UHGV virus genome: UHGV-1351279
Source of the DNA: a virus
Reading direction: 5' to 3' (one strand)
Length of the DNA stretch: 64,000 nucleotides
Below the pieces are notes generated by a model. It was not told the origin of the DNA, did no database searches, and saw nothing but the letters and a program-made list of their open reading frames with translations. This document shows positions 11,338-51,100 of the stretch, one piece after another (position 1 is the first letter of the stretch; each line of letters opens with the position of its first letter). A program made the translations under genes and the position numbers.

Positions 11338-11354
11338 TTAAATCTTGAAATAAT

Positions 11355-12824: not shown

Positions 12825-12855
12825 TCAGATTTTTTTCTCATATAATTATTAACTC

Positions 12856-12887: not shown

Positions 12888-12904
12888 CTAAAAAAGTAAA
12901 AACA

Positions 12905-13699: not shown

Positions 13700-13700
13700 T

Positions 13701-14402: not shown

Positions 14403-14419
14403 ATTTAAAAGATTAGATT

Positions 14420-27000: not shown

Positions 27001-29366
27001 GTGATTTATTTGGTGATAAGAAATATCCTTATGTAGTATTAGTTAAAAATCATAAAAACTATTATCAGGACTTTTTATTAAGAGCTTACCATGATATAAC
27101 AGATTATGAAAATAATTCAAATATAACTTTTAAAGGGGATACTTTTATATCTGCTATAAGACAGACACATTTATTACATGGTAATATAGCACCAAAAGTA
27201 GCTGTTATATTAAGAGATACTTGGGATTATGTAAAAGCTGCTGTAGTTGCTATAGTAGGTGTTGCTATAGCTGTATTTTCAGTAGGTACATTAGCTATTG
27301 TAGGAGGTGCTTTAATTGCTGCTGGAGGTGTATTCTTAGGTGTAAAATCCGAAATAAAGTATCAGCATTTAAAAAATGCACTTAATGAGTTTTGGATGAA
27401 AGGTCTAAAGAGAGTTTTATATGATGTATTATTTTATACTAATAATTGTAATGATGATATAAGAAGTGGGAATGAAATAGGACCTATGGATGATATTATA
27501 AGGCATTATGGTCAGATATTTGGTGATTTAATTTGTGAATCTGAGGTAAACATGTCATTAAGAGTACAAAATGATAATGATAAAAATAACTTCCTAAGAC
27601 CTTTTTCACCTTTTATGTATGATAGAAGGGAAGTCATAACACCAACAACAAGTAAAGATAGTGATGATAATAATCACCCTGGAGAGTTTAGACACCCATG
27701 GACTATAACTGTATATACAGAAATGGTTAATAGAGGAGGAGGTTGGAGAATAAATGCTGATGGAGGAGGTGTAGAAATAAAACAAAAGGAAGAGTGGTAT
27801 TTTATAAATAAACTTACAGAAGTAGATAAAAACAGAATAAAGCCAAAGCCTGATAATAACCCTAATGCTATGTCAGGTTATAAATACAAAGATGCTTTAA
27901 GTACTAATGAATTTGTATTAAATAAGGATTATCATACAAATTACTATGTATTGAAGTACTATGCTTTACCACAGGAATATTCCTTCTGTAGTAAATGTAA
28001 TGAAGAATTTACTAACAGATTTGCTTGGAGTGATGTAAGTATGGAGGAGAGCCTTGAGGATAATTATAAAATATTCAAGCCTAATAACTATAAAGATATA
28101 TCAAGTGAGTATGGTATAATAGTAAATATATTTGTATTAGCTAATCAGCTTTATATACATGTAGAAAATGGTCTTTGGATTCAACCTACTAACTATCAAG
28201 AAAGGGTTACTAATGGAGTAGTATCTTATATAGGTACAGGAGAGTTTGGTTCTTTACCTGCACAGCTTAGATTAGATTCTAAGACAGGTACATCAGCAGG
28301 ACTTACTCAAAGAGACTCTTTTGTGCTTACTAAGTATGGATATTTCTTTGTTTGTGAGAGAGAGGGTAAAATATATACTCTTGAACCTAATGGTCAATTA
28401 AAAGCTATCTCTGATATTGGTATGTCTAAATGGTTTACAGAGTATGTAAAATCTGATATAATAAGAAGGTTTTATCTTGATGACCATGTAGAAATAACAG
28501 ATGAATATGAACTAAATAACTGCCCTTATTTACCAGCTGGTGTAGGATATAACATGATATTTGATGAGGTGAACAGTAGGATATTAGTTACTAAAAGGCA
28601 ATTCTATGAAAGAGAAGGTAAGATAGAATCTCATGATTGGACTGTAAGTTTTTCTTTAAAATTCAATGCTTGGGTGTCTTTCCATAGTTATTTCCCTGAT
28701 AAGTATTTCTTTATCTTAGATACCTTATATAGTATAAAGAATGGAAAAATATACAGACATCAAAGTATAGAAGAGGGTTATAATAAATTCTATGATAGAG
28801 TACAACCTTTTATAGTTGAGTTTGTATCTAATAATTCACATACAACTACAAAGGTATATAACCATATAAGATATATCTCTAATGCTTATAGGTATGATAC
28901 TACAACTAAGTCTTTTGTTGAGAGAAGATACCTTACATTCAATAAAGCATTAATAAGTAATTCAAGACAATGCTCTGGACTTATGAATCTAAAAGTAAAA
29001 GATATTACTGACCCTACCTTAGATTATATGCAGGAACAAGTAATAAATACAAATAATGGTACTATACTTTTAGATAGGAATGAAAGAGATTGGTTATTGA
29101 ATGACCTAAGAGACTATGTAGTGAATTATGCTAAACCTTTATTTATAAAGAGATATTATAAATCAGGATTAGAAGAACCAACCTTTGATGTACAGGATTT
29201 AAATGAAAGTGTTATAGATATAAATAAAGATTGGTATAACCTTGAAAGTTTCAGAGATAAATTTTTGGTAATAAGATTAATTTTTGATACTTTTGCAGAT
29301 GAAAATAAATATACCAAATTGGTATTAAATATTTCAAATGAGCAAAGTAATATAAGTCAGTATTAA
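24066..29366 (+). CDS. giant virion protein (1766 aa). It has a central pair of TM helices (AAVVAIVGVAIAVFSVGTLAIVGGALIAAGGVFLGV) and an acidic-then-basic charge cluster (EEYEEEEEYEEDD...KKRRKVKKTRQVEKTRKVNK).
   Basis: Uninterrupted 5.3-kb ORF. Features read by eye. Confidence 0.55.
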   Translation: MDLINNSIEQPSKGLYTDVAPVNQPPGTYRFALNAVNESDEGDFGTLTNEVSNYNTSNLPEGFTCIGSVNITDNTIVLFLVNKETKVSEIGLFNKDREVYETWCNDSGTTEAKNKLNFQINKPIQATFRIRRGCERVIYFVDGYNVPRSVNLDEQSFYYDNGVLLASKMDINRKIYSVPKIKNIKIKDTDGSLKSGSVKICVKYVDKNKNETEVVSETEPIIIYEDSLKNTFEEIDGNLNLPDSKAYSSNGSTKSISFKIEGLDKNFEYYKLVFIHFENNTGFASAVYETQNISTEIDTYTYGGNGVFKSTLEELELKNKNQYIGSAKTITQKDNRLILGNIKGMTENWSVLQKYASKIGVDCVTKKVELNTLSDTNNPKNPLINIHGMEFMPGEVYSLGIVWIYEGNIESPAFHIPGTTRENTICQELTEEEKKIYTILPMSDDNESENLRYTQASKCDNDFDYWGVDFFGRKLKDKKVRFHRLPKRIDCLYTKAQENSSTSFPLLDTLTFNIYSAGKDSKYCEANPSDVHCTTDKRAKEYYYKVTLNDGTVKELTHSDDDGVKNFSIERTLRTESDKLSVILDGIPSSDAEKYTNSIFVTKVEKKYLRASYTINNGIYSVTYNIDNLETEDVIIEVDEKYYENEEYEEEEEYEEDDGSGNKVKKRRKVKKTRQVEKTRKVNKNFGKRIKHNTYPNTTIITTSISHTQTRVDFSEYYVYDLYTLNAGYRNITSVYRGDFWYYDDNISFGITTTMEKSSVETKRLVTSTIYGLKFSNIEMPDLGNLKCIGYKIVKQERKEEDKTVIDKGYLLPLLKAEGYHCLSIINGNFKTEQAQKPDGFSEKFVALFTPRYKFQNDTLERFSSIINEGGVIPEANAESGFYIQNVNDYRTKDEKKESNYTSQTDGSDLKVVIRSTELKCSNSVSNSEIRKEDLDFYNLQSCEYNVTENGETLMNLDMLNSQLILYNKKGNFDTSMFGDLFGDKKYPYVVLVKNHKNYYQDFLLRAYHDITDYENNSNITFKGDTFISAIRQTHLLHGNIAPKVAVILRDTWDYVKAAVVAIVGVAIAVFSVGTLAIVGGALIAAGGVFLGVKSEIKYQHLKNALNEFWMKGLKRVLYDVLFYTNNCNDDIRSGNEIGPMDDIIRHYGQIFGDLICESEVNMSLRVQNDNDKNNFLRPFSPFMYDRREVITPTTSKDSDDNNHPGEFRHPWTITVYTEMVNRGGGWRINADGGGVEIKQKEEWYFINKLTEVDKNRIKPKPDNNPNAMSGYKYKDALSTNEFVLNKDYHTNYYVLKYYALPQEYSFCSKCNEEFTNRFAWSDVSMEESLEDNYKIFKPNNYKDISSEYGIIVNIFVLANQLYIHVENGLWIQPTNYQERVTNGVVSYIGTGEFGSLPAQLRLDSKTGTSAGLTQRDSFVLTKYGYFFVCEREGKIYTLEPNGQLKAISDIGMSKWFTEYVKSDIIRRFYLDDHVEITDEYELNNCPYLPAGVGYNMIFDEVNSRILVTKRQFYEREGKIESHDWTVSFSLKFNAWVSFHSYFPDKYFFILDTLYSIKNGKIYRHQSIEEGYNKFYDRVQPFIVEFVSNNSHTTTKVYNHIRYISNAYRYDTTTKSFVERRYLTFNKALISNSRQCSGLMNLKVKDITDPTLDYMQEQVINTNNGTILLDRNERDWLLNDLRDYVVNYAKPLFIKRYYKSGLEEPTFDVQDLNESVIDINKDWYNLESFRDKFLVIRLIFDTFADENKYTKLVLNISNEQSNISQY

Positions 29367-34669: not shown

Positions 34670-37600
34670 ATGGAAAAACCAAGTAACAATGATAAAAAAG
34701 TAGCTTTAAATTCTTTATTTAATGCTATTGATAGAACTGTACAAGAAGATAGTAGAAAAAGAGTTGGTGGTCATAAAACAGTTAGAGACCTTGAAAAAAC
34801 TTTAGGTATAAAAGCTAACTCTATATCTACTTATAATGACCAAATGTCAGAAGTAAAAAGACTTGTTGGTGCTGATGCTTTTGTAGATACAGGAATAGAC
34901 TATACACAAAATCTTGCAGCTAACCAATCAGACTCTGAAGCTTTTACAAGAGGTGCTGCAATGCTTGGTAAAGGATTTGTTTCTGGAGCTTTACAAAGCT
35001 TTGCTTCATGGGATTTTGGTTCTATAAGAGATATGGCTACAGGAGATACCTCAAAGGAATTTGGAAATGCTCTTACTGAATCTTCATTAGCTAAATGGGC
35101 TAAAGACATGACAGGTTTAGAAATATACCAAAATGGAGATGATTTTGGTTCTTCTAAATATTGGGCAAGATTTATAGGACAACAAGGATTTACTCTTGGT
35201 ATTATGGCTGAAATGGCTTTAGAACAAGGTTTATTAGCCTATGTTACAGGAGGTGCTGGTAATGTTGCTGGAGCTGCTTCTAAGTCAAGATTGATATATA
35301 ATTTACTTACAGGAGTTAATGGTCTTTATGGAGGTGTTAGGGAAGCTTGGATGAATGGTTTAGAAACACAAGAGAATACATATAATAAGTATATACAATT
35401 AGGATTTGACCAAGAAACAGCTAAAAAAAGAGCTTCTGAAGCTGCTGCCATAGGTTTTAGAATGGAAGTAGGTCCTATAATGCTTCTTAATGGTATACAA
35501 TCAATGGCTACTTTTGGTAGATTTGCTTCTAAAGGTTTAAATAAGGCTTTAGAAGAAAGTATGGATTTTGGTGTGTCTAGTGCTGTAGGTAAGTTAGGAA
35601 GTATATTTGAAAAATCAAGTAATAAATTTGTAAGAAATGCGGGAATGCTTTTTACAGATTCAGTTTCAGAAGGTGTAGAAGAAGGTTATCAAACTTGGGC
35701 TGGTAATTATGCTCAAGATGAATTACAAAAAAGGCATCTTGGTTTTGGTACAGATGAACCTTTTTGGAATGAAGAAATGAGAGACTCTATTCTAATGGGT
35801 GCTTTATCTGGAGGTATGATGGCTGGGTTTGGTAAAGCTGTACAAAAATTTGGTGATTGGTATAGTGGAAGAAGTAAAGCTATTAATGAAGCTACAGAAG
35901 CTTTCATGAAAGATGTTACAAGTAATTCTGTAACAGCTATAAAAGAACTTAATGATGCTTCTTTAGCTTATCAAAAAGCCTTTGAAACTTATAATAAAGA
36001 TAAAACTAAAGATAACAGAAAAGCTATGAATGAAGCTAAGAAAAACCTTATCATAGCTCAAGAAAAACAAGGTACAGCTCAAGTGTTAGAAGCTATGGAG
36101 TTGGACCATTTAAAAGGTAATGAGAATAATGAAGTATTTAATGCTCATATAGAACAGATAGATAATGCTATAAAAGCTCTACAATCCAATGACACTGATA
36201 AATTAAAAGGTCTTGGATTTATAGATGAAAATGGTCAATCTGTAACAGGTCTTACTAATGCTGAAATGATAAAAATGCTACAATCTGATAAGGATAAAGC
36301 ATTAAAAACTAAGAAAAGATTTGAAGACCATTACCAACATACTACTACAGACTTAGGTACTATTAAAAAATTAGTAACTATTGAAACTAAGATAGATACC
36401 TTTGAAGAAATGAAAAAAGAAGTTGAAGGTAAGATTGGTAACTACAGAAATGGTAATCAAGTTTACTCTCAACTCTCTGAAGATGGTAAAGAACTTTATG
36501 GCCTTTATTTGAGAAAGAATGCTCTTGAAGGTCTTAAAGAAAGGGGAGGTATATCTAAAAATCAAGAAGTAGAACTTGATACTATTAATCATAAATTACA
36601 ATCTATAGCAGATGCCAATGGTAAGAAAAATGTAAATGATTTATACTCTGTTCAAGATGCAAATATTTTGAGGAGAGACATGATAGGTATACAAGCTCAA
36701 CAAGAGAATTATATAGAACATTATGCTTATGAGACTGAAATAGATAAGTTATATGAAAGTCTTGAGCATAATAGCAAGCAAGATGTCATAAAACAAAATA
36801 TAAAAGAAAGAAGAAAAGCTCAAAGAGAAGCTGCTAAAGCTGTAAGAGATTTTAATAAACTTGAGAGAGAGCAAGAAAAAGAAAGAAAAAGATTAGAGAA
36901 AGAAAAAGCTAAAGCTAAGAATAAAGAAGAGAAAGAGAAAGCTCAGAAAGAAATAGATGAGTTAGCTAAGGAACAAAAAGAAACTCAAGAGAAAAAAGAT
37001 AAAGCTCAAAAAATAGAGTCTATAGAGAATGAGACAGGTAATAAAGCTTCTGATACGGAGAAAGAAGAACTTATAAATAATGGAAACTTTATATATGCAG
37101 AGGAAGATACTGCATATAAATTTGATTTTGAAGAAGGGATTGTACCAGAAGAACCTACTAAAGAACCTACTGAAACTACAGACAATGCAGTAGAAGAAGC
37201 TATGAGTTTAAAAGAACTTATAGCTAAAGGGTTAATAAAATTAGGAGTACCTACACCAGCTGATGTATCCCCTTTTGATGATGATGGTGTAGATATTGAT
37301 GCTAATAATGAAGACTTTGCTTTTACTCCTATAGATGATTCTGAACCTGTAATATATACAGAACCTTTTGAAATTATAGATTTTGATGCTAATGCTAATC
37401 TTGAAGGGGATTTTGAAAGTAGGAGAGAAACTGCTATAAAATTTGTTCAAGAGATATTAAAAGAATTAGGATTAGATGAACCAGATTTTGAAGACTATAT
37501 AAAATACTTTATAGATAGAAAAGGTAAAAAAATTACTGATGATGTGTTTCCTGGTCTTGTAAAAATGTGGGAATTAGCAGGCTATAGTCTTGATAATGTA

Positions 37601-40600
37601 AATTCAGTATATGATAAATTCTTCAATACTGCTACTGCTGCATCAGATTTTGCTTTAGAACTTATGAATAATGGAACTCTTGTCAACAAATTTAATGAGG
37701 GTTCAGAAGCTACTGCTATAGCAAGTCAAGCTCCTGTAATAGCTACTAAAGGTAATAAAGTAATTAGAGATGATAGAGGAACATTAGGAGCTGGATTAGA
37801 AGTTATAGAGGATACAGCTACAGAAAATCCTAATCCTAAAGCAGCTCACTTAGGAGTGAAGTATGAAACAGTAACTCTACCTAATGGTGTTAAAGCTAAA
37901 AGATATTCTGAAGTAGAGCTTAATAATGACCCTTTTATAGATAATCATCTTGTACTTGATAAAGACTTTTTAAGTCCAGGAAGAGTACTTGATGTTAGAG
38001 TAGCTGAAGATGCTTTAGTTACTGTATGGGATAAAGACTCAAATGGTAATAAGATAAAGAAAACTGTAAAATTTAAAGACTTAGGATTACAACCAGGTAC
38101 TCCAGAATATAATGCTAAAGTTCCTATAGTAGCTTACTATGGGGATAAACCTGTATTCTTTTTACATGACCATGAGTGGTATAATAGAACTAATATCTCT
38201 AATAGACATGGTATGCAGGACCAAATTATTAAAGATGGTTCAAGAATGATTAATGAGGTAAGAAGACAAATATTAGAAGGAGGTAAAACTCAAATCAAGA
38301 TTACTGACAACCTTTTTGGTAATATGCTAAATTTAAGTAATGCTGCAAGAGAAAAAGACCAGCAACCTATAACTTTAAATGAAGCATCTAAAGGTTCTCA
38401 AATAGTAATTGCTGAAAAAACTAATACTATAAAAGCTGGAGGTGAGTTAGTACCAACAACAGACTTAGTCAATGACTTTGAGAAAAACCCTTTAATTCCA
38501 GGTGCTGCCTATGAGATAAGAGAAATAGGTGATGGTAAAAAAATATTACTTTCTGTAGCTTCTAACAGAACAGGAGAACTTGACAGTATGCCTGATATAG
38601 GATATAATACAGTTAAGTTCGGGATTATTGCTGCCTTTTATTTACTAAATAAAAATGACAGTAGATTTGAAAGTACAACAGCAGGTATTACTAAAAAGAA
38701 TAATGTTGTACACCCTACTATTGAAATAAAAAATGCTGATGGTACAGTTGAAAAAAGGATAGTAACTGTAAAACAAAAGCTTGAAAGTATGGGTATGACT
38801 GAAGATAAGGCTAAAAAAATAGCTGATGCTATACATATTGCTTATGGTATAGATATCTTAGAAGATGCTCATCTTTTATTTGAACTTTTCACTACTACAG
38901 CAACAGGAAAAACAAGTAAACAACAGTTTTTCCAAAATGCTACTAATCCTAATAATAAACAAAAAGTAATATTACTACCTAAGAAAAGTTCAGAAGGTAA
39001 AATATCAGTTAATTATCATGTAAAAGGGTATAGTACTGCACCTGTAACTCTTAGTGGTAAAAACCTAAATGCTATTGAAATGAAACTTAATGTAAAGCCT
39101 GATGACCAGGAAGGTTTTATAAGTTTCTTTAATTTCATGAATGCTTTGTTTAGACCCTCTAAAGAAGACGCAGAAAAAGGTATTACTAAAGGTGCTTTTT
39201 CTTATAATAACTTTATGCCTAATGATAAACAATTAGGCTCAGAAAAAACTTTAGTAAATATAACCAACAATGGAGAAATTACATCATACCAATCTACTAA
39301 TGGAAACAGCACTTACTCAGATTTTGCTAAAGACACTTTAAAAACAAATATTAAATCTTTTGAAATAGAAGGAGCTGATGGTAATAAAAAAAGTATATTA
39401 GATATACAACCTATGATTTATTATGAAGTAGTAGATGGTGAAGTCACTGCACCTCAAGCTACTTCAGCACCTAATGTAACTCCTATTACTCCTACTATAA
39501 CTCCTCCAAAACAAGAAGTTAATGTAGGTCAAGTAGTAACTGCTGCTAAAGAAGAGGGTGAGCAATCTGATTTTACTAAGAGAAAAGCTGAAGCATTAAA
39601 ATCAGTTGAGGAAATGAAAAAACTTATAGGTACTGAAGTAGGAGGTAAAATTTTTACTGAAGAAATGTATAAAAATGCTTTAGATTTTGCACTTTCTGAG
39701 TTTAATGAAGACCATGATGCTTCTGTATCTATAACAATGAATCAGTATCATCTGATTCAATCCACTAAGAATAATAGAATTGATGGTATCTCTATATTAG
39801 AAGAAAATGAATTACTAAATACTTTGTTTTATAGTACTCTTGAAAGAGTTAATTTAAATAAACATGAGGTAACTCTTAGCAGTATTCAAAGGTCTTTATA
39901 CAATAGCTTAAAAATAATTGAAGAAAGTAAAGAGCAGTTTGAAATTATGGCTAAAATAAACCCTGTATTAGCTTCAAGAATGAGTGCAAGGGTTGAAAAA
40001 CTAAAAGCTATACTTAATCAAAAAGAGAAACTTATAGGTAAAGATGGTTCTCTAATGATTATGCTTAATAGGTTTTTTGGTGAAGAGATTGAATTTAATG
40101 AAGAAGCTCTTGAAGATAGTGATGAAAGTATTATATCTATACAAGATGGAGATGGTACTGAAAAGAACTATTCTGAATCCTCTTTAGAAAAAAATGTAAA
40201 GATAACTTTTAGTAGTAGTCTTAAAATCCTTTTAGCTCGTGTAAAAGCTAAGAACAATCAAGGAACTAATAAACTTAACTCACTACAATTACCTATGTTT
40301 GAAGACATAGACAATGTAGTTATGACTTTACAGGAAGTATTAGTTAAGGGTAATTCTGACTTTGATTTTGTATTACAAGAATTAAAAAATAGAGGTAAAT
40401 CTACAAGACCTAATGCTCAAGTATATGCTGAGCTACATAGGTTATTTGCTGATGCTCCAAAGCACATACAAAATGAAATTTTGTATAAAATGACAAGTGA
40501 TGTTCTTAGTATGTATATGATTCTTATGCAAGAAGGAGCCTATAATAATTACACTAAACTTGCTTTACAGAATGCTAATAGTTCAGCTTCTGATATTAGA

Positions 40601-43600
40601 CTTGTTAGAGAATGGAAAAACAACTTTTTAAACTCTGAGCTATTCTTTGAGAAAGATGGTGAAAAGTATTATAACATGGAAAGGGTTGATCTTTTGAATA
40701 AAGAGATTAATAGCCTAAGAAATGACTATAAAGAACTATTAGTTGATAACCCTGAACATGTACAGAAACTTAATAGTGTATTAAGGAAACTTGGAATAAA
40801 CCTTTCTGAGAATACACTAAAAGAACTTCTATCTACAGAAGGTAATAATTTATTGAGTAATGTTGGTTCTTTAAGCCACATACAAAGAGTGTTATATGAA
40901 GTAAACAGTTTTTATCAAACACCAAGAAAAGACCCTAATACAGGTAAAGAAATACATATTAACCCTAAATATACAGATGAAGGTTTATCACTTTATGATG
41001 TTGAAGCTACTAATATAAGAAATAATTATGCTAACTTAGAGATTGATTTAAATGGTTCTATAATAGAAAAATCTTATAGGGTAGCAGGAAAGACTATTCA
41101 AGGTACTATACAAAAAATGATGGCTTATGATGCAGTATTTGAACTTAAAGATAGTAGTAACCCTAAAGCAGAACAATTATTACAAGTACCATATTCTTCA
41201 AGAAACTATATGCTTAGAATGATGGTTCCTGAAGATAGTAAAAAAGAAGATAGTGTTAGAAAAGCTGAAGAAATTAGAAATAGATTTGATATAGGATTTG
41301 TATCTCTTGAAGCTATTAAAGAAAGACATAAGAAAACATTTGGAAGTAGGAAAATTACAGATATTCCAGATACTGATAATGTATTAGCTCAACTTGGTTT
41401 CTTTCAAAATACAGTAAAGAAATTAACTCATAAGATACCTGGTTACAAGAGTTTATCTTTTAGATTAGCTAAAGTAATGAACCCAACTCTTTCTGATAAA
41501 AACCAAATGTTACTCTATGACATGGCTGTTGTAGATGTAACTAACTCTGTATTGTCTAATACTTTTGCTGATAAAGGTAATAAATATAATATAGGAGAGG
41601 ATTTATTAAACTTTCTTACAGACCAAATATTTGAATCAGAACTTGATAGAATCATTAGTTCCTTTAAGGAAAAGACTAATATAAAGAAGTATGATAAAGC
41701 AGCTCAATTCTTTTTAGCTTTCCCTGGTTTCAATACATTAGAACTCACTATGGAAGATGGTACTAAAATGTCCCTTATAGAGTTCTTACATATAAATAAA
41801 GGATTAGCAAAAGGTGAAGAAAATATAGCCATAAAAAGACCAGCTATAAGAGAAGCAGCAAAACAGTACTTAGCAGACCTTGTAAAAGAGAAGGTTAAGG
41901 ATAAAGTAAATTTTGACAATAACACAGGAGAATGGTTTGATAATAACTTTATTAGTTTTGATGAGAAAGGAGTAAATTTTGAGAATAATTTCCTTGATGA
42001 TTCATACCTTGCATCTAAGGTAAAAGGTTCTCCTGAAAAAAGTGTTGAGGTAGCAGCTTATGATTTTGTCATAAACAACATGTTAGCTCAAAATAATGTC
42101 TATCAAATGATAGCTGGAGATACAGCTTTATATTCTGAAAACCCTTCAAAATTTGCAGATAAAAAAGAGCCTAAAAACATAAGTAAGATAGACTTTGTAG
42201 GACTTGCTAAAAAAACTGCTGAAAATATAGATAAGCGTATGGCAATGTTAATAGCTCCAGGAAATAAATTAGCTAATAGTTTGCATGAGAAATATCTTCA
42301 AATTATGGTTAATGACCCTGTAACTATTACAAGTACTTCAAGACAACTCATAAAACAATACTATGGTGAGGTTACAAAAGAAAATGAACAGGTTATAGCA
42401 GCTATTGAGGAGTTTGAAGAAAAAGCTGAAAAAGCAAGAGGAGTGTATCTTGATGAATTAAGAAATGAATATAATAACAAGTATGTAAAAATCAATGATA
42501 AATTTGTATCAGTTGATAGTGATGGTGAAATACACTATTCAGACTCAATAGAAGCAGCAGAATCTTTAGGAAAAGTACTTAAAGGTGTTGATGGCTATCA
42601 AACCTTTTTAAAGGAAAATAATAAGGAAATAGGAGACTATTTTGATATAGAGGGTACAGATGCACAGGAGCTTACTACATGGCAGGAACACTTAGATATA
42701 TTACTAAGACAAGGAAGACTTACTGAAGAAGAAAGAAATGATATAAAAGCAGTATATGATAAACTTTCTAAAGGTGAGACCTTAGATTCTAAGGAACTTA
42801 AAGTGGTAATGCAACCTATAAAACCTGTATATGCAGGAAGTACTATAGTTAGAAATGATAAGAATGAACCTATAGTAAACAGAGTTACCTATATTAAGTC
42901 ATCTTCTTTTCCATTATTACCACAGCTTACAGCAGGTCTAAAGATAGATGCTGTGAGAAAACACATGGAAAAATTACAAGAACACCATAAAGGTAATAGG
43001 AAAGTAAGGCTATCCTTCCAAACAGCAAATAAAGTAGGTTCTATTGATTCTACTCTATCTATACATGACCTTTATAATAAAACATTTGATGAGCTATTCA
43101 ATAAAAGTACTTTACTTAATGATAATACTTTAGAGCTTGAAAGGAAACATTTTAAGATACAGCAGGATACTCCTTACAAGACAGATAAAAATATGGCTAA
43201 AGGTAAAGATGATTCTATTATTATGGGTTCTCAGATGTGGAAGATAATCTTAGGAAATGGTATCAATAAAATAGAAGAAGCTATATTTCCTAATACTTTT
43301 GATGCTGCTATCATTAATGAATATAACTCTCAAGTATCTGAGAAAGATAGGGTAGTTATAAACAGTACTAAGAGTAATCTTACAGGTAAAGACCTTGATA
43401 AAATAAAGAGTTATGTAGAGAATAAGTACATAAGGAATGAGAAAGATAAACTTTATAGACAATTAGGTTTAGACCCTGAGACTAATAGACCAAAAGATGA
43501 AGCAAAGTTCATGAAAACTTTGCAAGAACTTCTTATATCTGAAGCTAAGAGTAGAAATTATACTGATGGTCTTTTAGATGGCTTAGAAGTATTTGAAGAC

Positions 43601-46600
43601 TTAGAAAAGATAGATTTTAATATTCCTTTATGGTTATCATCAGGAAGTAATAAATTTGAAGCTTTACTTCAAGCTATCATATCTAACAGATTGATTGTGT
43701 TGAAGTTACCTGGAAACTCTCACTATACTTCCTCTTCTGAAGGTTTTAGCTTTAGAAAAGAAGATATAGTATCTTTAGAATCTATCAATGAAAATAAGAA
43801 GTCTGGAATAGTATGGTTAGACCCTAATCATACAGGAGAGTTAAGAGCTACTACTAATGAGAATGGAACTCTAAAAGAAGCTGAAGTGCTAATTCAAAGT
43901 AAGTTTAGAATTACTAAGGAAGATGGTACTACAGAGCTTATAGATTTAACTAAAACTCCTTATAGTGAAGAAGATAAAGCAACAGGTAAAAAGGTATTAA
44001 ATAAAGAAATGATAGACCAGGCATTACTCTCTATGTTTTCTTTCCGTATACCTACTTCATCACATCAGTCAGGAGCTATACTTAAAGTAGTAGGTTTCTT
44101 ACCTGAAGCAAGTGGAGACTTAATTGTAGTACCTAAAGAACATACTAAACAAATTGGGGAAGACTATGATATTGATAAGAGAAATATTTATAAGTCTAAT
44201 TATGTAGTAAGAGAAAATGGTAAGATAGAGAAACTTACTTCAGCTAATATTGAAGAAATAGTAAAAAAGAAGACTAAGAACTTACAGACACAAATTGATG
44301 CTTTGTATGATGCTGTTGGTAAAGAGTTTGCTAATAATAATAAAGTAAATGAAGATTTATCTTATTTAAGTATAGATGAACTTAGAGATATGGTTTATGA
44401 CGTCTTTGGTATAGATTTAGATGAAGAAGGTATTATAGATGATAAAGAGGTAAGAAAAGTTGCTAAAGAAAACATACTTAAAAAGAATGCTGAAAAGATT
44501 AAGACATTACATGATAGCAAACATAAATTACAGTGGAATAAATACTTTGTAGAAAAAACAACAAGAGAGAGCTTAGAAAAGAAACTCCTTGAAAATGCTA
44601 TGATTGATGTTTATAAGTCTGTATATCTAACTACTAATGATAAAGTACAAAAGAAGATAAATAAAGTTTTGTCTTTTGAAGTAGCTGGAGAAACTGCTAA
44701 ACTTATAGATAAGAAACTAAACTCAATGGAAAGTACTAAGTACTTTACTATATATGATGATTCTTATCAAAGGAAACTTATGAGATTAGGTTCTACAGGT
44801 AAATTAGGTATCTCTGTACATAGTAACACTGTAACTTTCTTATCTCAAATACAGAGGTTAGATAAACCTATTATAGTTAAGAGAACTGTTTATGATGAAA
44901 AAGGTAAACCCAGACTTGTAAACAGTGAAATGGAACTTGATGGTTTACCTTCTGATGGTACTTTAGGAGGATTTAATAATGAGTTCAAAACCCTTGATGG
45001 TATGAGACTTATTTCAGATGTAGTTGGAGAGAACCAAAACTCTGCTACAGATAATGTGAAAGCTCAAATCATGGGTAAGAGAAATGAAAATGCTTATACT
45101 ATTAATGTACTTACAATGCTTAATCTTAGAGGTTATGACATGACTAAGAATCCTGTAACATTAGATAATGGTAAAAAGCAACATTTACAGCTTACTTCTT
45201 TATTCTTATCTCAACCTATTCTTAGAAGATATGTGGAGTTACAAGAGAAGTATAAGTCTCTTACTTCTGGATATGTAAAAGATAAAGAAAATGAAATTAT
45301 AAGACAACTTATAAGAGAGTTTGATATTATAATTCCTGATAGTACTTTAAATAAGTTCAATAATGAAGGTGTTATTTTTAATGAAGAAGAACTCAGAATA
45401 CATGAAAAACAGATAACAGGTCAAGGTTTATACAATGGTCTTATAGATAATAAGAACACTCAAAATACAACTATGCAACTTGCTGTATTACAAACATTCT
45501 TAAATCTTAAAAGAGAATCTGAAGAAATAGGTGAATATCAGAAACTGATAAGTATGAACTCTACTAAACTTGGTATATCTTATTTCAACACCTTAGATAG
45601 AATAGAGATTTTAAGAAAATTGAATAATGAACAAAAGTTTGAAAATATCCAAAGCCTTGTAGGTGATTTTGAAGTAGTAGATTTTGACCTTCCTAATGAA
45701 GTAATTAAAGAGAGAATAAGAGAACTTAAAGATGATGGTTATGTATTGTTTAATTACATTACTCCTATTGCTATAAAGCCAACAACACCAGAAGGAACTA
45801 TGCTTATACACAGTTTGAAAACTTCTGAAAGTGTTTTTGATAAGTTGTATCCATATAAAAGTGCTACTGTAAAAGATATAATTGAAAAAATAACTGAGAT
45901 TGCTGGTAAGACAGACCTTAGAGGAGAGGCTTTAAATGATTTGAGATATACTATAATGCAGGAGTTTAAAGAGTTTATATACTCTTCTAAGAACAGTGGA
46001 TTATTTGAAGATGCTACAGTAAGAGAAGAAAGGGAAAGATTATTCTTTGACAGAGCAGGTAATGAATCTTTGGCTTCTTTTATAAACAGACTTCAAAAAA
46101 TGGACAATAACTTCCTGAAGAATAATGAGTTTATAAGAAGTTTACAAGCTGATGTAAGTCTTACAGGAGGTGTATCTACTATAAAGAACCTTTTTGAAGA
46201 GATGGATAAGTTCTCTCAAAGTAATAGATATAATGATTACTTGAAGATGCTTCAAGACAATGACACTATCATAGGAGAATGGAATGGTTATAAAGTAACT
46301 CCTTTCCAATTAGCTCAAGAATTAGCTACTTATGCTTACTTTGCTGACCAAGAAGGGGGTGCTACAGGGTTTAGAAATAACATCAATGCTAATTATCTTA
46401 ATGTTATAGGATTTTCTAAATATCTCAGAGATGTAAATAATGAAATATTTGGTACTATAGTTACTGATGCATTTTCTGATAAATTTGTGGAACAATTCTT
46501 TCAACATAATCCTGACCAAGCTATAACCCTTAGTCAAGATAAGTTAAAGAAACTTATAGGTGCTAAGGACAAGTTTGAAAGCATACTTATAAATAAAGGT

Positions 46601-48196
46601 TCAGAAGAAGCTTATAATCTTTGGAGGAGTAAGCCTAATAAAAGCACTTATAATGATTTTATAAATAAACTTAAAAGGTTTGAATCCCCTATTGATACAG
46701 ATAATAATGAAAAGACAGCACTTAGTGATAAGTATATTTCTATAAGGTATAATAGAGCAAATGGTAAGGCTTATAAACTATTTAAATTAGTAGATACTGA
46801 AATTACAGGAAGTGGTAGAGTACTTGTATATGAAGAGATAGCTGTTTTAGGTGATAATGGTTATAATGAGTATGATATGGAAGCTATTTATAATGATGGT
46901 TCTTTAAATCCTGTTGGAGATATAGAACCTGCTGAACCTATTATAAGTGCTAAACCTTTAGATTTATCTGAAATACAGGAAACTACTGTAGGAGAATTGT
47001 TAGGAGCTGTATTCCAGAAAGAAAGTAAGCTTAAAGACTTAATGAATGATTTATTACCTTTTATAGATAAAGATGTAAAAGTAATATTCTCTGATAACTA
47101 TAATGGTAAGAATGTATCTATAGCTACTTACATGTCTCAAGAAAATGTAATAGTAATCAATCCTATGATGAAGAATGATAATTTTGTCAAGAGACAACAA
47201 CAATTAGCTAAGTCTGAAAATTATATACAAGAGGTAGTTCTTGAAGAGATAATACACAGCATTACTGTTAGTGAATTAAGTAAATGGGGAGTAAGACAAA
47301 CTACTGAAGGAGGAAATCCTAAAGAGTTTAATTATGTAGTAAGAGATGATGCTCCTTTATATATCAAAAAGCTCAATGATTTATATGAATTAGCTAAATC
47401 TAAGATACCTTATGACCCAACAAATCATGCTACTTATCCTATGATGAATATTGCAGAGTTTGTAGCTGGTGTATTTTCTAATGGTAACTTCAGAGAACTC
47501 CTTGATAGTACTAAAGATGGGGGAGAAACATTACTTGATAAGTTTAGAAAACTCTTTAAGAATTTGATTACTTACTTAACAGGTAAGAAATACTCTGATG
47601 AGGTGATGACTACTGTTATGGAATTACTCAAAGCTAAAGGTAGAAGTACAGAGTTTGTAACTACAGATAGAAGTACCAAGGAGTTTAAGAAAGCTGAAGC
47701 AGCTGATAAAGTGAAGACTATTCTAAGACAACTTAAAGCTGAAGATGTTAATTTCAAAGATGAGTTATCACCATACTCTCCTAAGCAACTTAGTCAATAT
47801 GCTTACAGAAAAGCTTTCTCTGATAATATAATTAATGATTTGAAAGCTGGTAAGACAATATTTGTAAATGAGAAAAACAGTAGAAATAATGTTGAGAAAA
47901 AGTATATTCAAGATATTATAGACCTTATTTTAACTGTACCTGGAATGAATGAGGATAACAAAGGAGAAGCTATGGAATACAAAAAAGTAAGAAATGATTT
48001 GTATATGTTGAAAATAAAAGATACTTTTGCAGAGAAACTTGCTAAATTGGATTCTGTATCTCCAGAGAATTTTGATTACACAGGATTTAATTTACAGCAA
48101 GCTATAAATCATATTATGAAAGAGAACCCTTCATTTACAACAAAGGATTTAAAGAATAAATTAAAAGAAATTGGTCTTATAAAAGAAGATTGCTAA
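34670..48196 (+). CDS. 4508-aa megaprotein containing a virion-RNA-polymerase-like domain (two-barrel RNAP beta-prime-type catalytic loop)
   Basis: Uninterrupted 13.5-kb ORF. Residues ~3125-3169 (nt 44042-44176) read FRIPTSSHQSGAILKVVGFLPEASGDLIVVPKEHTKQIGEDYDIDKR. This parallels the R-x-P-T-L-H-R...NADFDGD loop of multisubunit RNAP beta-prime and the D-[FY]-D-x-D loop of crAss-like virion RNAPs. There is a K/E-rich coiled-coil segment at about nt 36780-37030. Confidence 0.6.
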   Translation: MEKPSNNDKKVALNSLFNAIDRTVQEDSRKRVGGHKTVRDLEKTLGIKANSISTYNDQMSEVKRLVGADAFVDTGIDYTQNLAANQSDSEAFTRGAAMLGKGFVSGALQSFASWDFGSIRDMATGDTSKEFGNALTESSLAKWAKDMTGLEIYQNGDDFGSSKYWARFIGQQGFTLGIMAEMALEQGLLAYVTGGAGNVAGAASKSRLIYNLLTGVNGLYGGVREAWMNGLETQENTYNKYIQLGFDQETAKKRASEAAAIGFRMEVGPIMLLNGIQSMATFGRFASKGLNKALEESMDFGVSSAVGKLGSIFEKSSNKFVRNAGMLFTDSVSEGVEEGYQTWAGNYAQDELQKRHLGFGTDEPFWNEEMRDSILMGALSGGMMAGFGKAVQKFGDWYSGRSKAINEATEAFMKDVTSNSVTAIKELNDASLAYQKAFETYNKDKTKDNRKAMNEAKKNLIIAQEKQGTAQVLEAMELDHLKGNENNEVFNAHIEQIDNAIKALQSNDTDKLKGLGFIDENGQSVTGLTNAEMIKMLQSDKDKALKTKKRFEDHYQHTTTDLGTIKKLVTIETKIDTFEEMKKEVEGKIGNYRNGNQVYSQLSEDGKELYGLYLRKNALEGLKERGGISKNQEVELDTINHKLQSIADANGKKNVNDLYSVQDANILRRDMIGIQAQQENYIEHYAYETEIDKLYESLEHNSKQDVIKQNIKERRKAQREAAKAVRDFNKLEREQEKERKRLEKEKAKAKNKEEKEKAQKEIDELAKEQKETQEKKDKAQKIESIENETGNKASDTEKEELINNGNFIYAEEDTAYKFDFEEGIVPEEPTKEPTETTDNAVEEAMSLKELIAKGLIKLGVPTPADVSPFDDDGVDIDANNEDFAFTPIDDSEPVIYTEPFEIIDFDANANLEGDFESRRETAIKFVQEILKELGLDEPDFEDYIKYFIDRKGKKITDDVFPGLVKMWELAGYSLDNVNSVYDKFFNTATAASDFALELMNNGTLVNKFNEGSEATAIASQAPVIATKGNKVIRDDRGTLGAGLEVIEDTATENPNPKAAHLGVKYETVTLPNGVKAKRYSEVELNNDPFIDNHLVLDKDFLSPGRVLDVRVAEDALVTVWDKDSNGNKIKKTVKFKDLGLQPGTPEYNAKVPIVAYYGDKPVFFLHDHEWYNRTNISNRHGMQDQIIKDGSRMINEVRRQILEGGKTQIKITDNLFGNMLNLSNAAREKDQQPITLNEASKGSQIVIAEKTNTIKAGGELVPTTDLVNDFEKNPLIPGAAYEIREIGDGKKILLSVASNRTGELDSMPDIGYNTVKFGIIAAFYLLNKNDSRFESTTAGITKKNNVVHPTIEIKNADGTVEKRIVTVKQKLESMGMTEDKAKKIADAIHIAYGIDILEDAHLLFELFTTTATGKTSKQQFFQNATNPNNKQKVILLPKKSSEGKISVNYHVKGYSTAPVTLSGKNLNAIEMKLNVKPDDQEGFISFFNFMNALFRPSKEDAEKGITKGAFSYNNFMPNDKQLGSEKTLVNITNNGEITSYQSTNGNSTYSDFAKDTLKTNIKSFEIEGADGNKKSILDIQPMIYYEVVDGEVTAPQATSAPNVTPITPTITPPKQEVNVGQVVTAAKEEGEQSDFTKRKAEALKSVEEMKKLIGTEVGGKIFTEEMYKNALDFALSEFNEDHDASVSITMNQYHLIQSTKNNRIDGISILEENELLNTLFYSTLERVNLNKHEVTLSSIQRSLYNSLKIIEESKEQFEIMAKINPVLASRMSARVEKLKAILNQKEKLIGKDGSLMIMLNRFFGEEIEFNEEALEDSDESIISIQDGDGTEKNYSESSLEKNVKITFSSSLKILLARVKAKNNQGTNKLNSLQLPMFEDIDNVVMTLQEVLVKGNSDFDFVLQELKNRGKSTRPNAQVYAELHRLFADAPKHIQNEILYKMTSDVLSMYMILMQEGAYNNYTKLALQNANSSASDIRLVREWKNNFLNSELFFEKDGEKYYNMERVDLLNKEINSLRNDYKELLVDNPEHVQKLNSVLRKLGINLSENTLKELLSTEGNNLLSNVGSLSHIQRVLYEVNSFYQTPRKDPNTGKEIHINPKYTDEGLSLYDVEATNIRNNYANLEIDLNGSIIEKSYRVAGKTIQGTIQKMMAYDAVFELKDSSNPKAEQLLQVPYSSRNYMLRMMVPEDSKKEDSVRKAEEIRNRFDIGFVSLEAIKERHKKTFGSRKITDIPDTDNVLAQLGFFQNTVKKLTHKIPGYKSLSFRLAKVMNPTLSDKNQMLLYDMAVVDVTNSVLSNTFADKGNKYNIGEDLLNFLTDQIFESELDRIISSFKEKTNIKKYDKAAQFFLAFPGFNTLELTMEDGTKMSLIEFLHINKGLAKGEENIAIKRPAIREAAKQYLADLVKEKVKDKVNFDNNTGEWFDNNFISFDEKGVNFENNFLDDSYLASKVKGSPEKSVEVAAYDFVINNMLAQNNVYQMIAGDTALYSENPSKFADKKEPKNISKIDFVGLAKKTAENIDKRMAMLIAPGNKLANSLHEKYLQIMVNDPVTITSTSRQLIKQYYGEVTKENEQVIAAIEEFEEKAEKARGVYLDELRNEYNNKYVKINDKFVSVDSDGEIHYSDSIEAAESLGKVLKGVDGYQTFLKENNKEIGDYFDIEGTDAQELTTWQEHLDILLRQGRLTEEERNDIKAVYDKLSKGETLDSKELKVVMQPIKPVYAGSTIVRNDKNEPIVNRVTYIKSSSFPLLPQLTAGLKIDAVRKHMEKLQEHHKGNRKVRLSFQTANKVGSIDSTLSIHDLYNKTFDELFNKSTLLNDNTLELERKHFKIQQDTPYKTDKNMAKGKDDSIIMGSQMWKIILGNGINKIEEAIFPNTFDAAIINEYNSQVSEKDRVVINSTKSNLTGKDLDKIKSYVENKYIRNEKDKLYRQLGLDPETNRPKDEAKFMKTLQELLISEAKSRNYTDGLLDGLEVFEDLEKIDFNIPLWLSSGSNKFEALLQAIISNRLIVLKLPGNSHYTSSSEGFSFRKEDIVSLESINENKKSGIVWLDPNHTGELRATTNENGTLKEAEVLIQSKFRITKEDGTTELIDLTKTPYSEEDKATGKKVLNKEMIDQALLSMFSFRIPTSSHQSGAILKVVGFLPEASGDLIVVPKEHTKQIGEDYDIDKRNIYKSNYVVRENGKIEKLTSANIEEIVKKKTKNLQTQIDALYDAVGKEFANNNKVNEDLSYLSIDELRDMVYDVFGIDLDEEGIIDDKEVRKVAKENILKKNAEKIKTLHDSKHKLQWNKYFVEKTTRESLEKKLLENAMIDVYKSVYLTTNDKVQKKINKVLSFEVAGETAKLIDKKLNSMESTKYFTIYDDSYQRKLMRLGSTGKLGISVHSNTVTFLSQIQRLDKPIIVKRTVYDEKGKPRLVNSEMELDGLPSDGTLGGFNNEFKTLDGMRLISDVVGENQNSATDNVKAQIMGKRNENAYTINVLTMLNLRGYDMTKNPVTLDNGKKQHLQLTSLFLSQPILRRYVELQEKYKSLTSGYVKDKENEIIRQLIREFDIIIPDSTLNKFNNEGVIFNEEELRIHEKQITGQGLYNGLIDNKNTQNTTMQLAVLQTFLNLKRESEEIGEYQKLISMNSTKLGISYFNTLDRIEILRKLNNEQKFENIQSLVGDFEVVDFDLPNEVIKERIRELKDDGYVLFNYITPIAIKPTTPEGTMLIHSLKTSESVFDKLYPYKSATVKDIIEKITEIAGKTDLRGEALNDLRYTIMQEFKEFIYSSKNSGLFEDATVREERERLFFDRAGNESLASFINRLQKMDNNFLKNNEFIRSLQADVSLTGGVSTIKNLFEEMDKFSQSNRYNDYLKMLQDNDTIIGEWNGYKVTPFQLAQELATYAYFADQEGGATGFRNNINANYLNVIGFSKYLRDVNNEIFGTIVTDAFSDKFVEQFFQHNPDQAITLSQDKLKKLIGAKDKFESILINKGSEEAYNLWRSKPNKSTYNDFINKLKRFESPIDTDNNEKTALSDKYISIRYNRANGKAYKLFKLVDTEITGSGRVLVYEEIAVLGDNGYNEYDMEAIYNDGSLNPVGDIEPAEPIISAKPLDLSEIQETTVGELLGAVFQKESKLKDLMNDLLPFIDKDVKVIFSDNYNGKNVSIATYMSQENVIVINPMMKNDNFVKRQQQLAKSENYIQEVVLEEIIHSITVSELSKWGVRQTTEGGNPKEFNYVVRDDAPLYIKKLNDLYELAKSKIPYDPTNHATYPMMNIAEFVAGVFSNGNFRELLDSTKDGGETLLDKFRKLFKNLITYLTGKKYSDEVMTTVMELLKAKGRSTEFVTTDRSTKEFKKAEAADKVKTILRQLKAEDVNFKDELSPYSPKQLSQYAYRKAFSDNIINDLKAGKTIFVNEKNSRNNVEKKYIQDIIDLILTVPGMNEDNKGEAMEYKKVRNDLYMLKIKDTFAEKLAKLDSVSPENFDYTGFNLQQAINHIMKENPSFTTKDLKNKLKEIGLIKEDC

Positions 48197-51100
48197 TGAG
48201 TACTTGTAAAGTAGAATTTAAAGGTTTTAATATTGATTCAAGTAGTTTAGATAACTACTTGAATCAATTTACCATTGATGGTAAACAAAAGATAGATGGG
48301 GCTAAAAACACCATAAGCTATTTATTAAGTAATGCAAAAGACAATAAGTTAGGAGTACTTAAACTTGCTCTTAACTCTAATAAAGCATACATTAAAGATT
48401 TAGCTAATATGATGCTTAATACTAATAGAAAATTCTATGCTGAGGTAGAGATAAACAACAACCTTAAAGGGTTTTCTAAGTATAATGCTAATGACAATAA
48501 AATCTATATCAATGTAGATGCTATATCACAGAGGTTTTCTGAAAGTGCAGAGGAATATTTGTATGAAAGAATAGTTCATGACTTTATACAAGGATTTGCA
48601 AATAGAGAGCTAAAAAAAGCATATGAAGATGCTAATAGAGACTCTCCTTATATGAAGAATATAATCAACTTGTTTAAAGAATATTCAAAGAGTGTAGACC
48701 TTAAGGAATATAATGTATTCAAGGATAGTGTAAATAAAGAACCTTTGTTGGACCCAAGAAGTGAAAGAAGTCTTATAAGAGAGGGTTATGCTGAAGAGAC
48801 TTACAGAGCTATTACTAATCCTGCTGAGTTCTTATCTTATGGTTTGTCTAATAGTGAGTTTAGAAATACACTGAGAAAGCAAAACTTATGGCAAAAGTTT
48901 GTTTCTTTGTTAAAAGACCTTTTAGGTATATCTCAAGATAATAATGACTTAGAGTACCTTTATAAAAACTTAGATAGTTATTTAAAACAAGATGACCCTT
49001 ATACATTACATAGTGGAGGTGCAATTGGAGCTGATACTGTTTGGGGCCAGATAGGTAAACAATTTGGTATATCAGAAGAAAATCAAAGACATTATAAAAC
49101 TGCTGATATGCCTAATGGTAATACTCAAATAACTGAGCAAGATTATAGAGAAGGTAGAAAAGAAGCAGCTAAAGCAGCTAATAGAATGTTTGGTTATGAC
49201 AAAACTGAAGTAAACATGGGTTTGCTTATAAGAAATTGGTCTCAAGTAAAATATTCTGAAGCTGTATATGCTGTTGGAAGATTAGTTCCAGCTGGAGAGA
49301 ATGCTTTTCCTGATAATAAAAAAGAAGATACAAGAATTGCAAAAAACCCTACTGTAACAGGAGGTACAGGTTATGCTGTAAATATGGCTATTCTTAATAA
49401 TAAACCTGTGTATGTATATAATCAGTATGACAATCCAACTTACCCAAAAGGTTGGTATAAATATGATTCTAATATAAATGATTATGTACCTACAGAGACA
49501 CCTACACTTACAAGACACTTTGCTGGTATAGGTACAAGAAATATCAATGAAGATGGTGAAAAAGCTATTCAAGATACTTATGAAAAAACTTTCAATAAAA
49601 AACAACAAACAGGTTCTCAGAGTAGTACAGATAGTAATATAAAAGTAGAACAACAAAATAGATATTCTGTACAAGATGTGAGAAATAATCCTGACAAAAT
49701 ATTTGTATTTGGTGATAACTCCATAAGACAAGGTACAGGAGGTCAAGCTCAAATAAGAAATGAGCCTAATGCAGTTGGTATAATGACTAAAAAGTTTCCA
49801 AGAAATACACCTGATGCCTTTTTATATGATAGTGAATATGCAGAAAATATTAAGAGAATAAATGAAGATATAGAGAACTTAAAGCAAAAAGTAAAAGGTA
49901 AAACTGTAGTTTTTCCTACAGATGGTATTGGTACTAATTTAGCTGATATAGCTCATACAGCACCAAGAACTATGGAGTATCTTATAAATAGATTAAGAGA
50001 AGAGTTTGGACTAAAAGATTCAGACCCTTTTATAAAATCTATGCTTAATAAACTAAATGAAGCAAGAAATGGTTTTGGACAAAAAATGCTTATAGATGGA
50101 GAAATTTATTCATATAATGTAGATAAATTAAAAGCTTATAAACACACATTTGTTGGTTCAGGTATAAATGCTAAACAAAATGCTACTGAAGTTACTGACC
50201 CTAATTTAATAAAAAAAATATCTGATAAGTATTTTGAAACAGATAATAATAATAATAATGAAAGTAATACATCCGATAAAGTAGATGATATATTAAATGA
50301 GTTTGAGTTTTTAAAAACAAATGACCCAGAGCAAAGTAAAGAAGTTGAGATATTAGAACCTTTTGGAGTGTTTCCAAAAAATACAGGTTTCCTAATTGTA
50401 CATACTCCAAGCGCAAAAGGTAATACTGTTGTTAGAATAAAAACAAAAGATGGTAAATACTATCAGTATGAAATAGTTAAAGTTGGTGCTGGTGAATCAG
50501 TTTCTGTTTTTAAGTTTGACAAAGAGGGTGATAGATATGTAAAAAAATCTTTAGAATTAAATGAAAAAAACTCTTTCATTAAAAGCTTTGTAATAAAATT
50601 TGTTGGAATAAGTAATGAGCAAGCAAACAGAGAGGATATAAAAAGTATCTTTACAAAAGCTTTAGCATTTTTGACTAATAAATCTAAGAATAAAGAAGGG
50701 TATAGAGAGCTACTCAATAATGAGTTTGTAAAGAGTGACTTGCTACACATACATAATGTAAATTTACAAGACACAATAGCACAAATTAATTCATTAAAAG
50801 CTGATGATAAAGTTGAAGTTGATAGGATTAATTATCTTTTAGATTATCTTACAAATGATTTAAATAACAACGATAAAATATGGTATTTTGGTAGGTATGC
50901 TGAAAATGATTTATTTGGTCTTTTAGTTAATGAAGAAAAACTTACAAAACTTTCATCAGAAGATGCACTCTTAAAGTATGAAGAACTTAAACAGCTATTA
51001 TCAAGAAAATTTAAAGAGCTTGTATATGATTACAATGGTGATGTAAAAAAATGGCTATTTTCTTTATTAGATGAAAAAGAATTAGATGGTGATTTACTGA

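Follow-up and report, generated by a model that had tools for sequence, protein, structure and literature searches.

The 64,000-nucleotide stretch of viral DNA analyzed here, UHGV virus genome UHGV-1351279 and referred to below as the window, carries on its plus strand a 13.5-kb open reading frame (ORF) that encodes a giant protein of 4508 amino acids (aa). We hold it very probable that this protein is a modular single chain, in which a domain resembling the N-terminal domain (NTD) of the phage N4-type virion RNA polymerases (vRNAPs) is followed by linkers and a middle domain, by an RNA polymerase (RNAP) of the type that phi14:2, a crAss-like phage, has as its gp66, and by a zincin-like domain, and that it serves as an injected transcriber of early genes. 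The evidence supports the view that residues ~1649-3970 form a complete gp66-type single-chain two-barrel RNAP, with both barrels predicted. To judge by its sequence, the protein is a divergent addition to a family that is already known, the giant virion RNAP polyproteins of the crAss type, and the fusion itself is not new.

The ORF begins with ATG and proceeds through 4508 codons with zero internal stops, so that its description in an initial annotation of this DNA is confirmed by both the ORF listing and the translation. At the base composition of the window (A 0.385, T 0.310, G 0.183 and C 0.123) stops are expected to make up 8.9% of codons, and the probability of a stop-free run of this length is about 1e-183, which bears out the statement that it cannot be due to chance. 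The orthologous ORF is unbroken in all eight of the IMG/VR contigs, from at least four samples. The four close IMG/VR relatives encode proteins of 4472-4500 aa (identity of 87-92% over the full protein and 85-94% over the polymerase core), and the four distant relatives encode proteins of 4084-4202 aa (39-40% over the full length and 54-55% over the core). The ORF is likewise uninterrupted in the cultured Flavobacterium phage FpV4, where it encodes gp32 (4287 aa). Queried with aa 1-1200, an exhaustive HMMER search yielded 93 cluster representatives, 47 of them giants of 3246-5469 aa, and all 47 giants carry the N-terminal domain at the N-terminus with the catalytic segment downstream. A frameshift in assembly or sequencing that had artificially fused adjacent genes, the break against which the initial annotation had cautioned, is therefore refuted, since the ORF is intact in the eight contigs and in isolates of the FpV4 type and 47 cluster representatives with lengths of 3000 aa or more likewise have it unbroken, and we give it practically no chance.

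The relationship of the central region to phi14:2 gp66, which in GenBank has the same protein sequence as PDB entry 6VR4, is seen at several levels. BLASTP places aa 2657-3530 on gp66 955-1666 over 908 columns, with an E value of 2e-27 and an identity of ~23%. A core profile of nine sequences, compared with the PDB, has 6vr4_A as its sole match (E 2.1e-29). This match needed a profile, as single-sequence phmmer searches of the PDB with the whole protein and with aa 2301-3633 gave no match, although 6VR4 was in the library. For a wider comparison a family profile was built around the 47 giants as a 51-sequence alignment and cut into segments for hhalign. Residues 1838-2488 align to gp66 224-885 (Prob 98.8, E 7e-17), residues 2663-3530 to gp66 961-1666 (Prob 99.9, E 2e-35), and residues 3551-3968 to gp66 1679-2030 (Prob 88.9, E 2.4e-6). 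Since these three consecutive segments are colinear over gp66 224-2030, the enzyme, of 2180 residues, is present almost in full, well beyond the catalytic loop. Pfam contains no meaningful match to the giant protein, including none to RNA_pol_Rpb1. The identity of a cellular RNAP beta-prime subunit was considered and rejected, on account of this missing match and of a motif that reads EDYDIDK, not NADFDGD.

The catalytic elements can be followed residue by residue. The loop peptide on which the initial annotation rested its polymerase claim is the exact translation of 44042-44182 (FRIPTSSHQSGAILKVVGFLPEASGDLIVVPKEHTKQIGEDYDIDKR), and BLASTP pairs FRIPTSSHQSG...GEDYDIDK with YRIPNQGQSSN...GSDFDIDK of gp66, so that DYDID corresponds to gp66 1361-DFDID-1365. 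The claim of a polymerase catalytic loop is thus upheld. Its equation with the beta-prime NADFDGD loop holds for the metal-binding triad of Asp residues, but not for the fourth position, where this protein, like every crAss-type enzyme, has Ile and not Gly. The same annotation had recommended comparison with crAss gp66 profiles and a search for the other, beta-like barrel and its conserved Lys/Arg residues. The former gave the colinear alignment described above, and the latter is recovered at the sequence level, as K2718 (in QPIKPVY) and K2743 (in YIKSSS) fall on gp66 K1012 and K1027, and neither varies across the nine-sequence alignment. The bridge-helix and trigger-loop regions, for which we use the gp66 coordinates defined by Drobysheva et al. 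2021, align to gp66 ~1529-1555 and ~1598-1636, and most of their residues are conserved in that alignment too. Across the giants, D[FY]D[IV]D is found in 45 of 47, with DFDFD in one more, and Y[IVL]K[STC]S is likewise present in 45. While the giants are only ~30% identical overall, conservation in the protein peaks at the catalytic triad, the barrel lysines and the trigger loop. It could be argued that the protein acts chiefly in virion structure or ejection, as an internal virion protein, and that its polymerase module has become a catalytically dead relic, given that FpV4 gp32 and PHROG 16227 are annotated as 'virion structural protein' only and that over 40% of the chain lies outside the polymerase. 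However, the strongest conservation across 47 clusters rests on the triad, both barrel lysines and the trigger loop, which is what one expects of an active enzyme, and we regard such a relic as very improbable. The coordinates of the polymerase and of the other features are collected in Table 1.

Table 1. Features of the giant ORF, with positions in the window and the basis of each assignment.
Feature	Position	Strand	Residues and basis
Whole ORF: giant virion RNA polymerase polyvalent protein	34670..48196	+	4508 aa plus stop; phrog_16227 E 2.6e-176
Glycine-rich N-terminal domain	34847..35869	+	aa ~60-400; N4-NTD-like by profile; best-conserved part of first 1600 residues
Helical K/E-rich coiled-coil-like region and acidic linker (aa ~800-950)	35867..37519	+	composition; K/E peak aa 714-781
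Conserved middle domain	37517..38659	+	aa ~950-1330; conserved across giants; weak match to FpV4 gp32 1145-1578
Thr/Pro-rich linker APQATSAPNVTPITPTITPPKQE, boundary of N-module and polymerase	39449..39517	+	aa 1594-1616
gp66-type two-barrel DNA-dependent RNA polymerase module (barrels predicted)	39614..46579	+	aa ~1649-3970; hhalign vs gp66, PDB profile search
Beta-like barrel signature QPIKPVY ... YIKSSS	42812..42907	+	K2718, K2743; aligned to gp66 K1012, K1027
Beta-prime-like barrel catalytic loop FRIPTSS...GEDYDIDKR	44042..44182	+	DYDID aa 3165-3169, nt 44162-44176
Variable helical insertion after catalytic loop	44252..44569	+	aa ~3195-3300; family occupancy 0.36-0.40
Bridge-helix region (aa 3366-3390) and trigger-loop region (aa 3454-3482), ENQNSATDNVKAQIMGKRNENAYTINVLT	44765..45115	+	gp66 alignment
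Zincin-like domain (polyvalent-protein metallopeptidase / N4 gp50 C1-like)	47075..47641	+	aa ~4136-4324
Variable K/E-rich C-terminal tail	47702..48193	+	aa 4345-4508; occupancy 0.38-0.46

The polymerase module is not uniform in its conservation. The helical insertion that follows the catalytic loop has only 30-46% identity to close relatives, as against more than 90% elsewhere, and occurs as two alleles. The first is found in the window and in relative L007, and the second in relatives L004-L006, which are otherwise ~90% identical and whose insertion resembles that of L008 and L010 from the 39%-identical clade. The two alleles suggest the exchange of a cassette by recombination.

Within the N-terminal domain lie a SEGVEEGYQ motif at aa 333-341 and three helices that are moderately hydrophobic (aa 174-192, 258-276 and 373-391, with Kyte-Doolittle peaks of ~1.2). 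Positions 228-419 of phrog_2206, an N4-type 'virion RNA polymerase', match the domain with an E value of 3.9e-7 when aa 61-400 are used and 2.7e-10 with aa 1-620. For a profile-profile comparison eight additional N-terminal regions were fetched, giving an N4-like NTD profile of 12 sequences, and hhalign of the 51-sequence family profile against it returns a Prob of 88.9 and an E value of 2.4e-6, with aa 236-386 on N4 gp50 323-437. The two sets share an S/R-E-x-x-E-E-G-x-Q motif. As controls, the other eight segments of the protein reach E values of 0.19-0.96 against the same NTD profile, the best of 20 column shuffles 0.29, and the reversed alignment 0.16. To go by these profiles, homology of the domain with the lipid-binding NTD of N4-like vRNAPs is probable. 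In N4 gp50 the NTD binds lipid and has predicted membrane helices at residues 224-278 (PMC13434306). A likeness to the N-terminus of phi14:2 gp67 is no more than suggestive, with a Prob of 45.6 and an E value of 2e-4 that becomes 0.033 with the segments of the 51-sequence profile and is not significant in a six-sequence comparison. A tblastn search of 50,697 phage records with aa 1-1500 found no match, and a local hmmsearch with the N-terminal alignment was also negative. Another arrangement of these domains is provided by cluster representative P0051 (2127 aa), in which the N-terminal domain is joined straight to a zincin-like domain resembling that of the XC38 vRNAP, without a polymerase.

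At the other end of the chain, aa 4188-4323 match the zincin-like protein of phi14:2 (GenBank gp076, which is gp65 in the numbering of Drobysheva et al.) with an E value of 5e-9, and tblastn of the C-terminus also picks up the virion RNAPs of N4-like Acinetobacter phages. With hhalign the domain aligns to phi14:2 gp65 201-357 (Prob 97.4, E 9e-12), to residues 1982-2178 of the vRNAP of the N4-like Acinetobacter phage XC38 (Prob 97.1, E 7e-11), and to N4 gp50 2207-2364 (Prob 51.5, E 1.5e-4). The last of these positions lie inside the C1 subdomain of gp50 (residues 2124-2375), which carries a conserved HExxH motif and stands directly after the polymerase (PMC13434306). Metallopeptidase domains of this kind are common in injected 'polyvalent proteins', the N4 vRNAP included (Iyer et al. 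2017). In the window the motif reads EEIIH (aa 4192-4196, nt 47243-47257), such that the first His is changed to Glu while the catalytic Glu and the second His are retained, and it is because of this replacement that we call the domain zincin-like rather than a zincin protease. The window and its 39%-identical relatives have L-E-E-x-I-H, and HExxH is found in FpV4 (as HEVIH), phi14:2 gp65 and the N4-like enzymes. Among the 26 giants with a readable motif, 22 have EExxH and four HExxH. As far as the aligned motifs go, EExxH is a fixed variant and not a sign of decay, and the domain may be a regulator or hold a different metal site instead of acting as a protease. A profile of the zincin-like domain, compared with the PDB, gave weak matches only (E 0.5-0.9, over an NIxEFiAgvF...FR motif), to 9sfn_G, an 'Internal virion protein', and 8vb2_A, the 'Tetrameric ejection protein gp48', both of which are phage ejection proteins. 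The C-terminal tail that follows has no similarity to phi14:2 or N4-like proteins by hhalign.

Between the N-terminal domain and the polymerase lie the linkers and the middle domain. The K/E-rich region that had been placed at ~36780-37030 was found at nt 36809-37012, and the acidic linker beyond it is mostly missing in distant relatives, with an alignment occupancy of 0.42-0.57 at aa 751-900. The boundary with the polymerase is marked by the low conservation of aa 1601-1700. Two cluster representatives, P0085 (1838 aa) and P0080 (2207 aa), consist of the N-module alone, without a polymerase, and these stand-alone proteins end where aa ~1592-1603 aligns. A split is also seen in L022 (ENA ERZ25067879 ctg72840, 303 kb, 33.6% GC), where a gp66-like polymerase at 8226-14530 is divided into a protein of 516 aa matching window aa 1649-2053 and another, P0001, of 1509 aa, which matches aa 2272-3925 and contains DFDID. 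These natural divisions, in P0085, in P0080, in P0051 and in L022, whose polymerase starts at aa 1649, support the module boundaries. The polymerase of L022 has neither N-module nor zincin domain. Bacterial housekeeping genes (PFOR, FKBP, MutS2 and dihydroorotase) surround it, a T5orf172 gene adjoins it, and there are zero phage structural genes within 10 kb. Such a copy may have been domesticated or may be a relic.

The same boundaries bear on whether the chain is a true polyprotein, cut in the linkers at ~aa 1594-1616 and ~aa 3970-4130 into gp67-like, gp66-like and gp65-like parts, during assembly or after ejection, and possibly by its own zincin-like domain. Cutting has been proposed for the fused forms by Drobysheva et al., and autoprocessing by the metallopeptidase domains of polyvalent proteins by Iyer et al. 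2017. The boundaries fall on low-complexity and poorly conserved linkers, the separate N-modules of P0085 and P0080 end at one of them, and phi14:2 employs three genes for the equivalent parts. Set against this, the first zinc-binding His of HExxH is Glu here and in 22 of the 26 giants with a readable motif, N4 gp50, which has an equal order of domains, is reported to function uncleaved and to remain intact without degradation (PMC13434306), and the likeness of the N-module to gp67 is only suggestive. Given the EExxH substitution and the precedent of N4 gp50, we lean towards a chain that stays intact and consider processing into three parts rather unlikely.

The setting of the ORF is that of a crAss-like phage, in which it is a real and intact gene as far as gene content and sequence can tell. 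TerL, portal and major capsid protein (MCP) of the window match crAss-type PHROGs, the MCP shares 51% identity with its counterpart in the Flavobacterium psychrophilum phage FpV4, and the crAss muzzle protein PF25731 lies upstream of the giant ORF, at 24066-29366. When the 50,697 phage records were searched by megablast with 20 kb of the window, no nucleotide-level match was found, and the window contains no tRNA genes. Between 2.3 and 58.6 kb the large genes all lie on the plus strand. At ~58.7 kb the strand and the sign of the GC skew switch, and minus-strand genes for a deoxynucleoside monophosphate (dNMP) kinase, an Ant-like anti-repressor and a Dda-like helicase follow. This strand layout, together with the crAss structural genes, places the giant ORF within the late structural and cargo block. 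Its position is that of FpV4 gp32 and phi14:2 gp66, and the gene order is common to all three.

From these parts a course of events can be proposed. The protein would be made late and loaded into the capsid as cargo. It would then be threaded, mostly unfolded, through the tail alongside the DNA and would refold in the cell, where the N-terminal domain would sit at or in the membrane and the polymerase module would transcribe the early genes, represented by the minus-strand block from ~58.7 kb, without the host RNAP. In phi14:2, gp66 and its neighbors are virion proteins verified by tandem mass spectrometry (GenBank notes), and gp66 is injected and transcribes the early genes, with early transcription being resistant to rifampicin (Drobysheva et al. 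2021).

A number of results weigh against this interpretation. An AlphaFold2 model of aa 2450-3649 from a 10-sequence alignment has a mean pLDDT of 48.5, with values below 50 in the region of the catalytic loop; homologue searches with segments of the protein returned 12, 5 and 1 sequences, too few for deep alignments. Foldseek on that low-confidence model ranks 6vr4_A first by three orders of magnitude, yet with an E value of 3.6e-3 and a TM score of 0.12. The homology of the N-terminal domain appears only at the level of profiles: phrog_2206 matches none of 13 relatives when these are scanned singly, and a six-sequence N-terminal alignment has no significant match to the single sequences of phi14:2 gp67, XC38 vRNAP and N4 gp50. 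For some 1200 residues, aa 420-1620, comparisons with phi14:2 and N4 detected no homologue outside the family. For this reason the proposal that the whole N-module equals phi14:2 gp67 was not established. The loss of the first His speaks against a canonical zincin protease. Finally, packaging, ejection, membrane association and activity are what we infer from the homologues in phi14:2 and N4 and from the position of the gene.

The two genes that follow also belong to the large plus-strand genes. The first (48196-53592, plus strand, 1798 aa) lies within the cargo block, and its ATG and the stop of the giant ORF overlap (TAATG). Its product contains a DprA-like region (aa 266-413), DUF7831 (aa 486-598) and a Dda/PIF1-like helicase of superfamily 1 (SF1; aa 1102-1781). 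The gene is restricted to the close relatives L004-L007, where its ends are conserved, its middle is shuffled and the lengths are 1038-1568 aa. In vitro, the phi14:2 polymerase transcribes only single-stranded DNA, and QDE-1, the related Neurospora enzyme, requires a helicase. With these properties in mind, it is tempting to view the 1798-aa helicase protein as a co-injected partner of the polymerase. The second gene (53604-58616, plus strand, 1670 aa) is conserved behind the polymerase in every relative, with ~46% identity in L008-L011. Its product matches the C-terminal third of FpV4 gp33 and has zero Pfam or PHROG matches.

Fused giants of this type have been described before. Drobysheva et al. 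2021, citing Yutin et al. 2018, describe fused crAss RNAP polyproteins, a 2023 review gives crAss RNAP polyproteins of 'up to ~6000 aa', and Yutin et al. 2021 treat giant transcription proteins as a signature of the group. The initial annotation had spoken of a new fusion architecture and had taken the characterized relatives to be about 2200 aa long or split. Neither statement can be kept, since FpV4 gp32 is a colinear single chain of 4287 aa, PHROG 16227 is a 4401-position profile of the FpV4 gp32-type protein, and the 47 clusters and the literature extend to similar and greater lengths. What is added here is a domain map, the flanks shared with N4-type vRNAPs around an unrelated core, and the EExxH variant.

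The value of the protein is thus comparative. It is a divergent representative of the injected RNAPs that start crAss-like infection, with 28% identity to its nearest cultured homologue, and it brings together in one chain all the pieces that phi14:2 distributes over gp67, gp66 and gp65, and marks the boundaries of the modules. The 2026 paper on the structure of the N4 enzyme poses as a question how the RNAP-associated proteins of crassviruses are related to the N4 NTD, core and C-terminal domain (PMC13434306). The link of two modules to the N4 NTD and C1 offers a testable answer, namely a shared ejection strategy in Crassvirales and Schitoviridae. Whether giant crAss-type and N4-type vRNAPs share one inherited ejection scaffold, made up of a membrane-binding domain at the N-terminus and a zincin-like domain behind the polymerase, into which two unrelated cores would have been slotted by displacement of the core within a conserved delivery vehicle, is on the present sequences a proposition for which we see an even chance. 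The widespread occurrence of EExxH bears on whether these 'protease' domains cleave at all.

Several known systems can be compared with the protein, the most remote being Neurospora QDE-1 and the cellular RNAP beta and beta-prime subunits. These have the two-barrel architecture and the Asp triad in common with it and are related via gp66 (Drobysheva et al.), but their fourth motif residue is Gly where the window has Ile, and the profile search of the PDB gave only 6VR4. The 5002-aa tape-measure protein gp96 of Thermus phage P23-45 is likewise a giant, delivered to the host, that combines a two-barrel RNAP with membrane and metallopeptidase domains (bioRxiv 10.1101/2022.12.01.518664). The likeness is one of described domain content, and gp96 differs in coming from a siphovirus, in its N-terminal polymerase and in its DFDGD motif.

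The vRNAPs of N4 (gp50) and other Schitoviridae, of ~3300-3500 aa, are built from a lipid-binding-type NTD, a low-complexity linker, a polymerase, a short linker and C1 (PMC13434306), and this order is the same in the window. In contrast, the N4 core is a T7-like single-subunit polymerase whereas that of the window is of the two-barrel type, and the polymerase segments reach E values of just 0.02-0.37 against N4 gp50 and XC38, with 0.33 for the core profile against N4 gp50. The C2 domain of N4, of 1100 residues, has no counterpart that was found in the window protein, and the motif is EExxH as opposed to HExxH. Membership among the Schitoviridae vRNAPs was consequently rejected, as the core is unrelated to that of N4 gp50 or the XC38 vRNAP and the flanking domains alone are common.

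The two closest systems are those of phi14:2 and FpV4. The window protein shares with phi14:2 gp66 (PDB 6VR4) the D[FY]DID motif with Ile at the fourth position, a bridge helix, a trigger loop and both barrels, which in the window protein are read from the sequence, and both genes stand in a block between large cargo genes. However, gp66 is a stand-alone protein of 2180 aa, whereas the window protein has ~1600 residues before the polymerase module and ~430 after it, and the zincin-like domain, a separate downstream protein (gp65) in phi14:2, is part of the same chain in the window. FpV4 gp32 (YP_009594088; Fipvunavirus) differs in having only 28-30% identity, an N-terminal region without a detectable match to that of the window, HEVIH in place of EEIIH, and one large gene downstream where the window has two. 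It is nevertheless colinear with the window protein over aa 1513-4235, at 28% identity, and more weakly over aa 959-1396, and like it has a long N-terminal region, a polymerase and a zincin-like domain, encoded at the same gene position.

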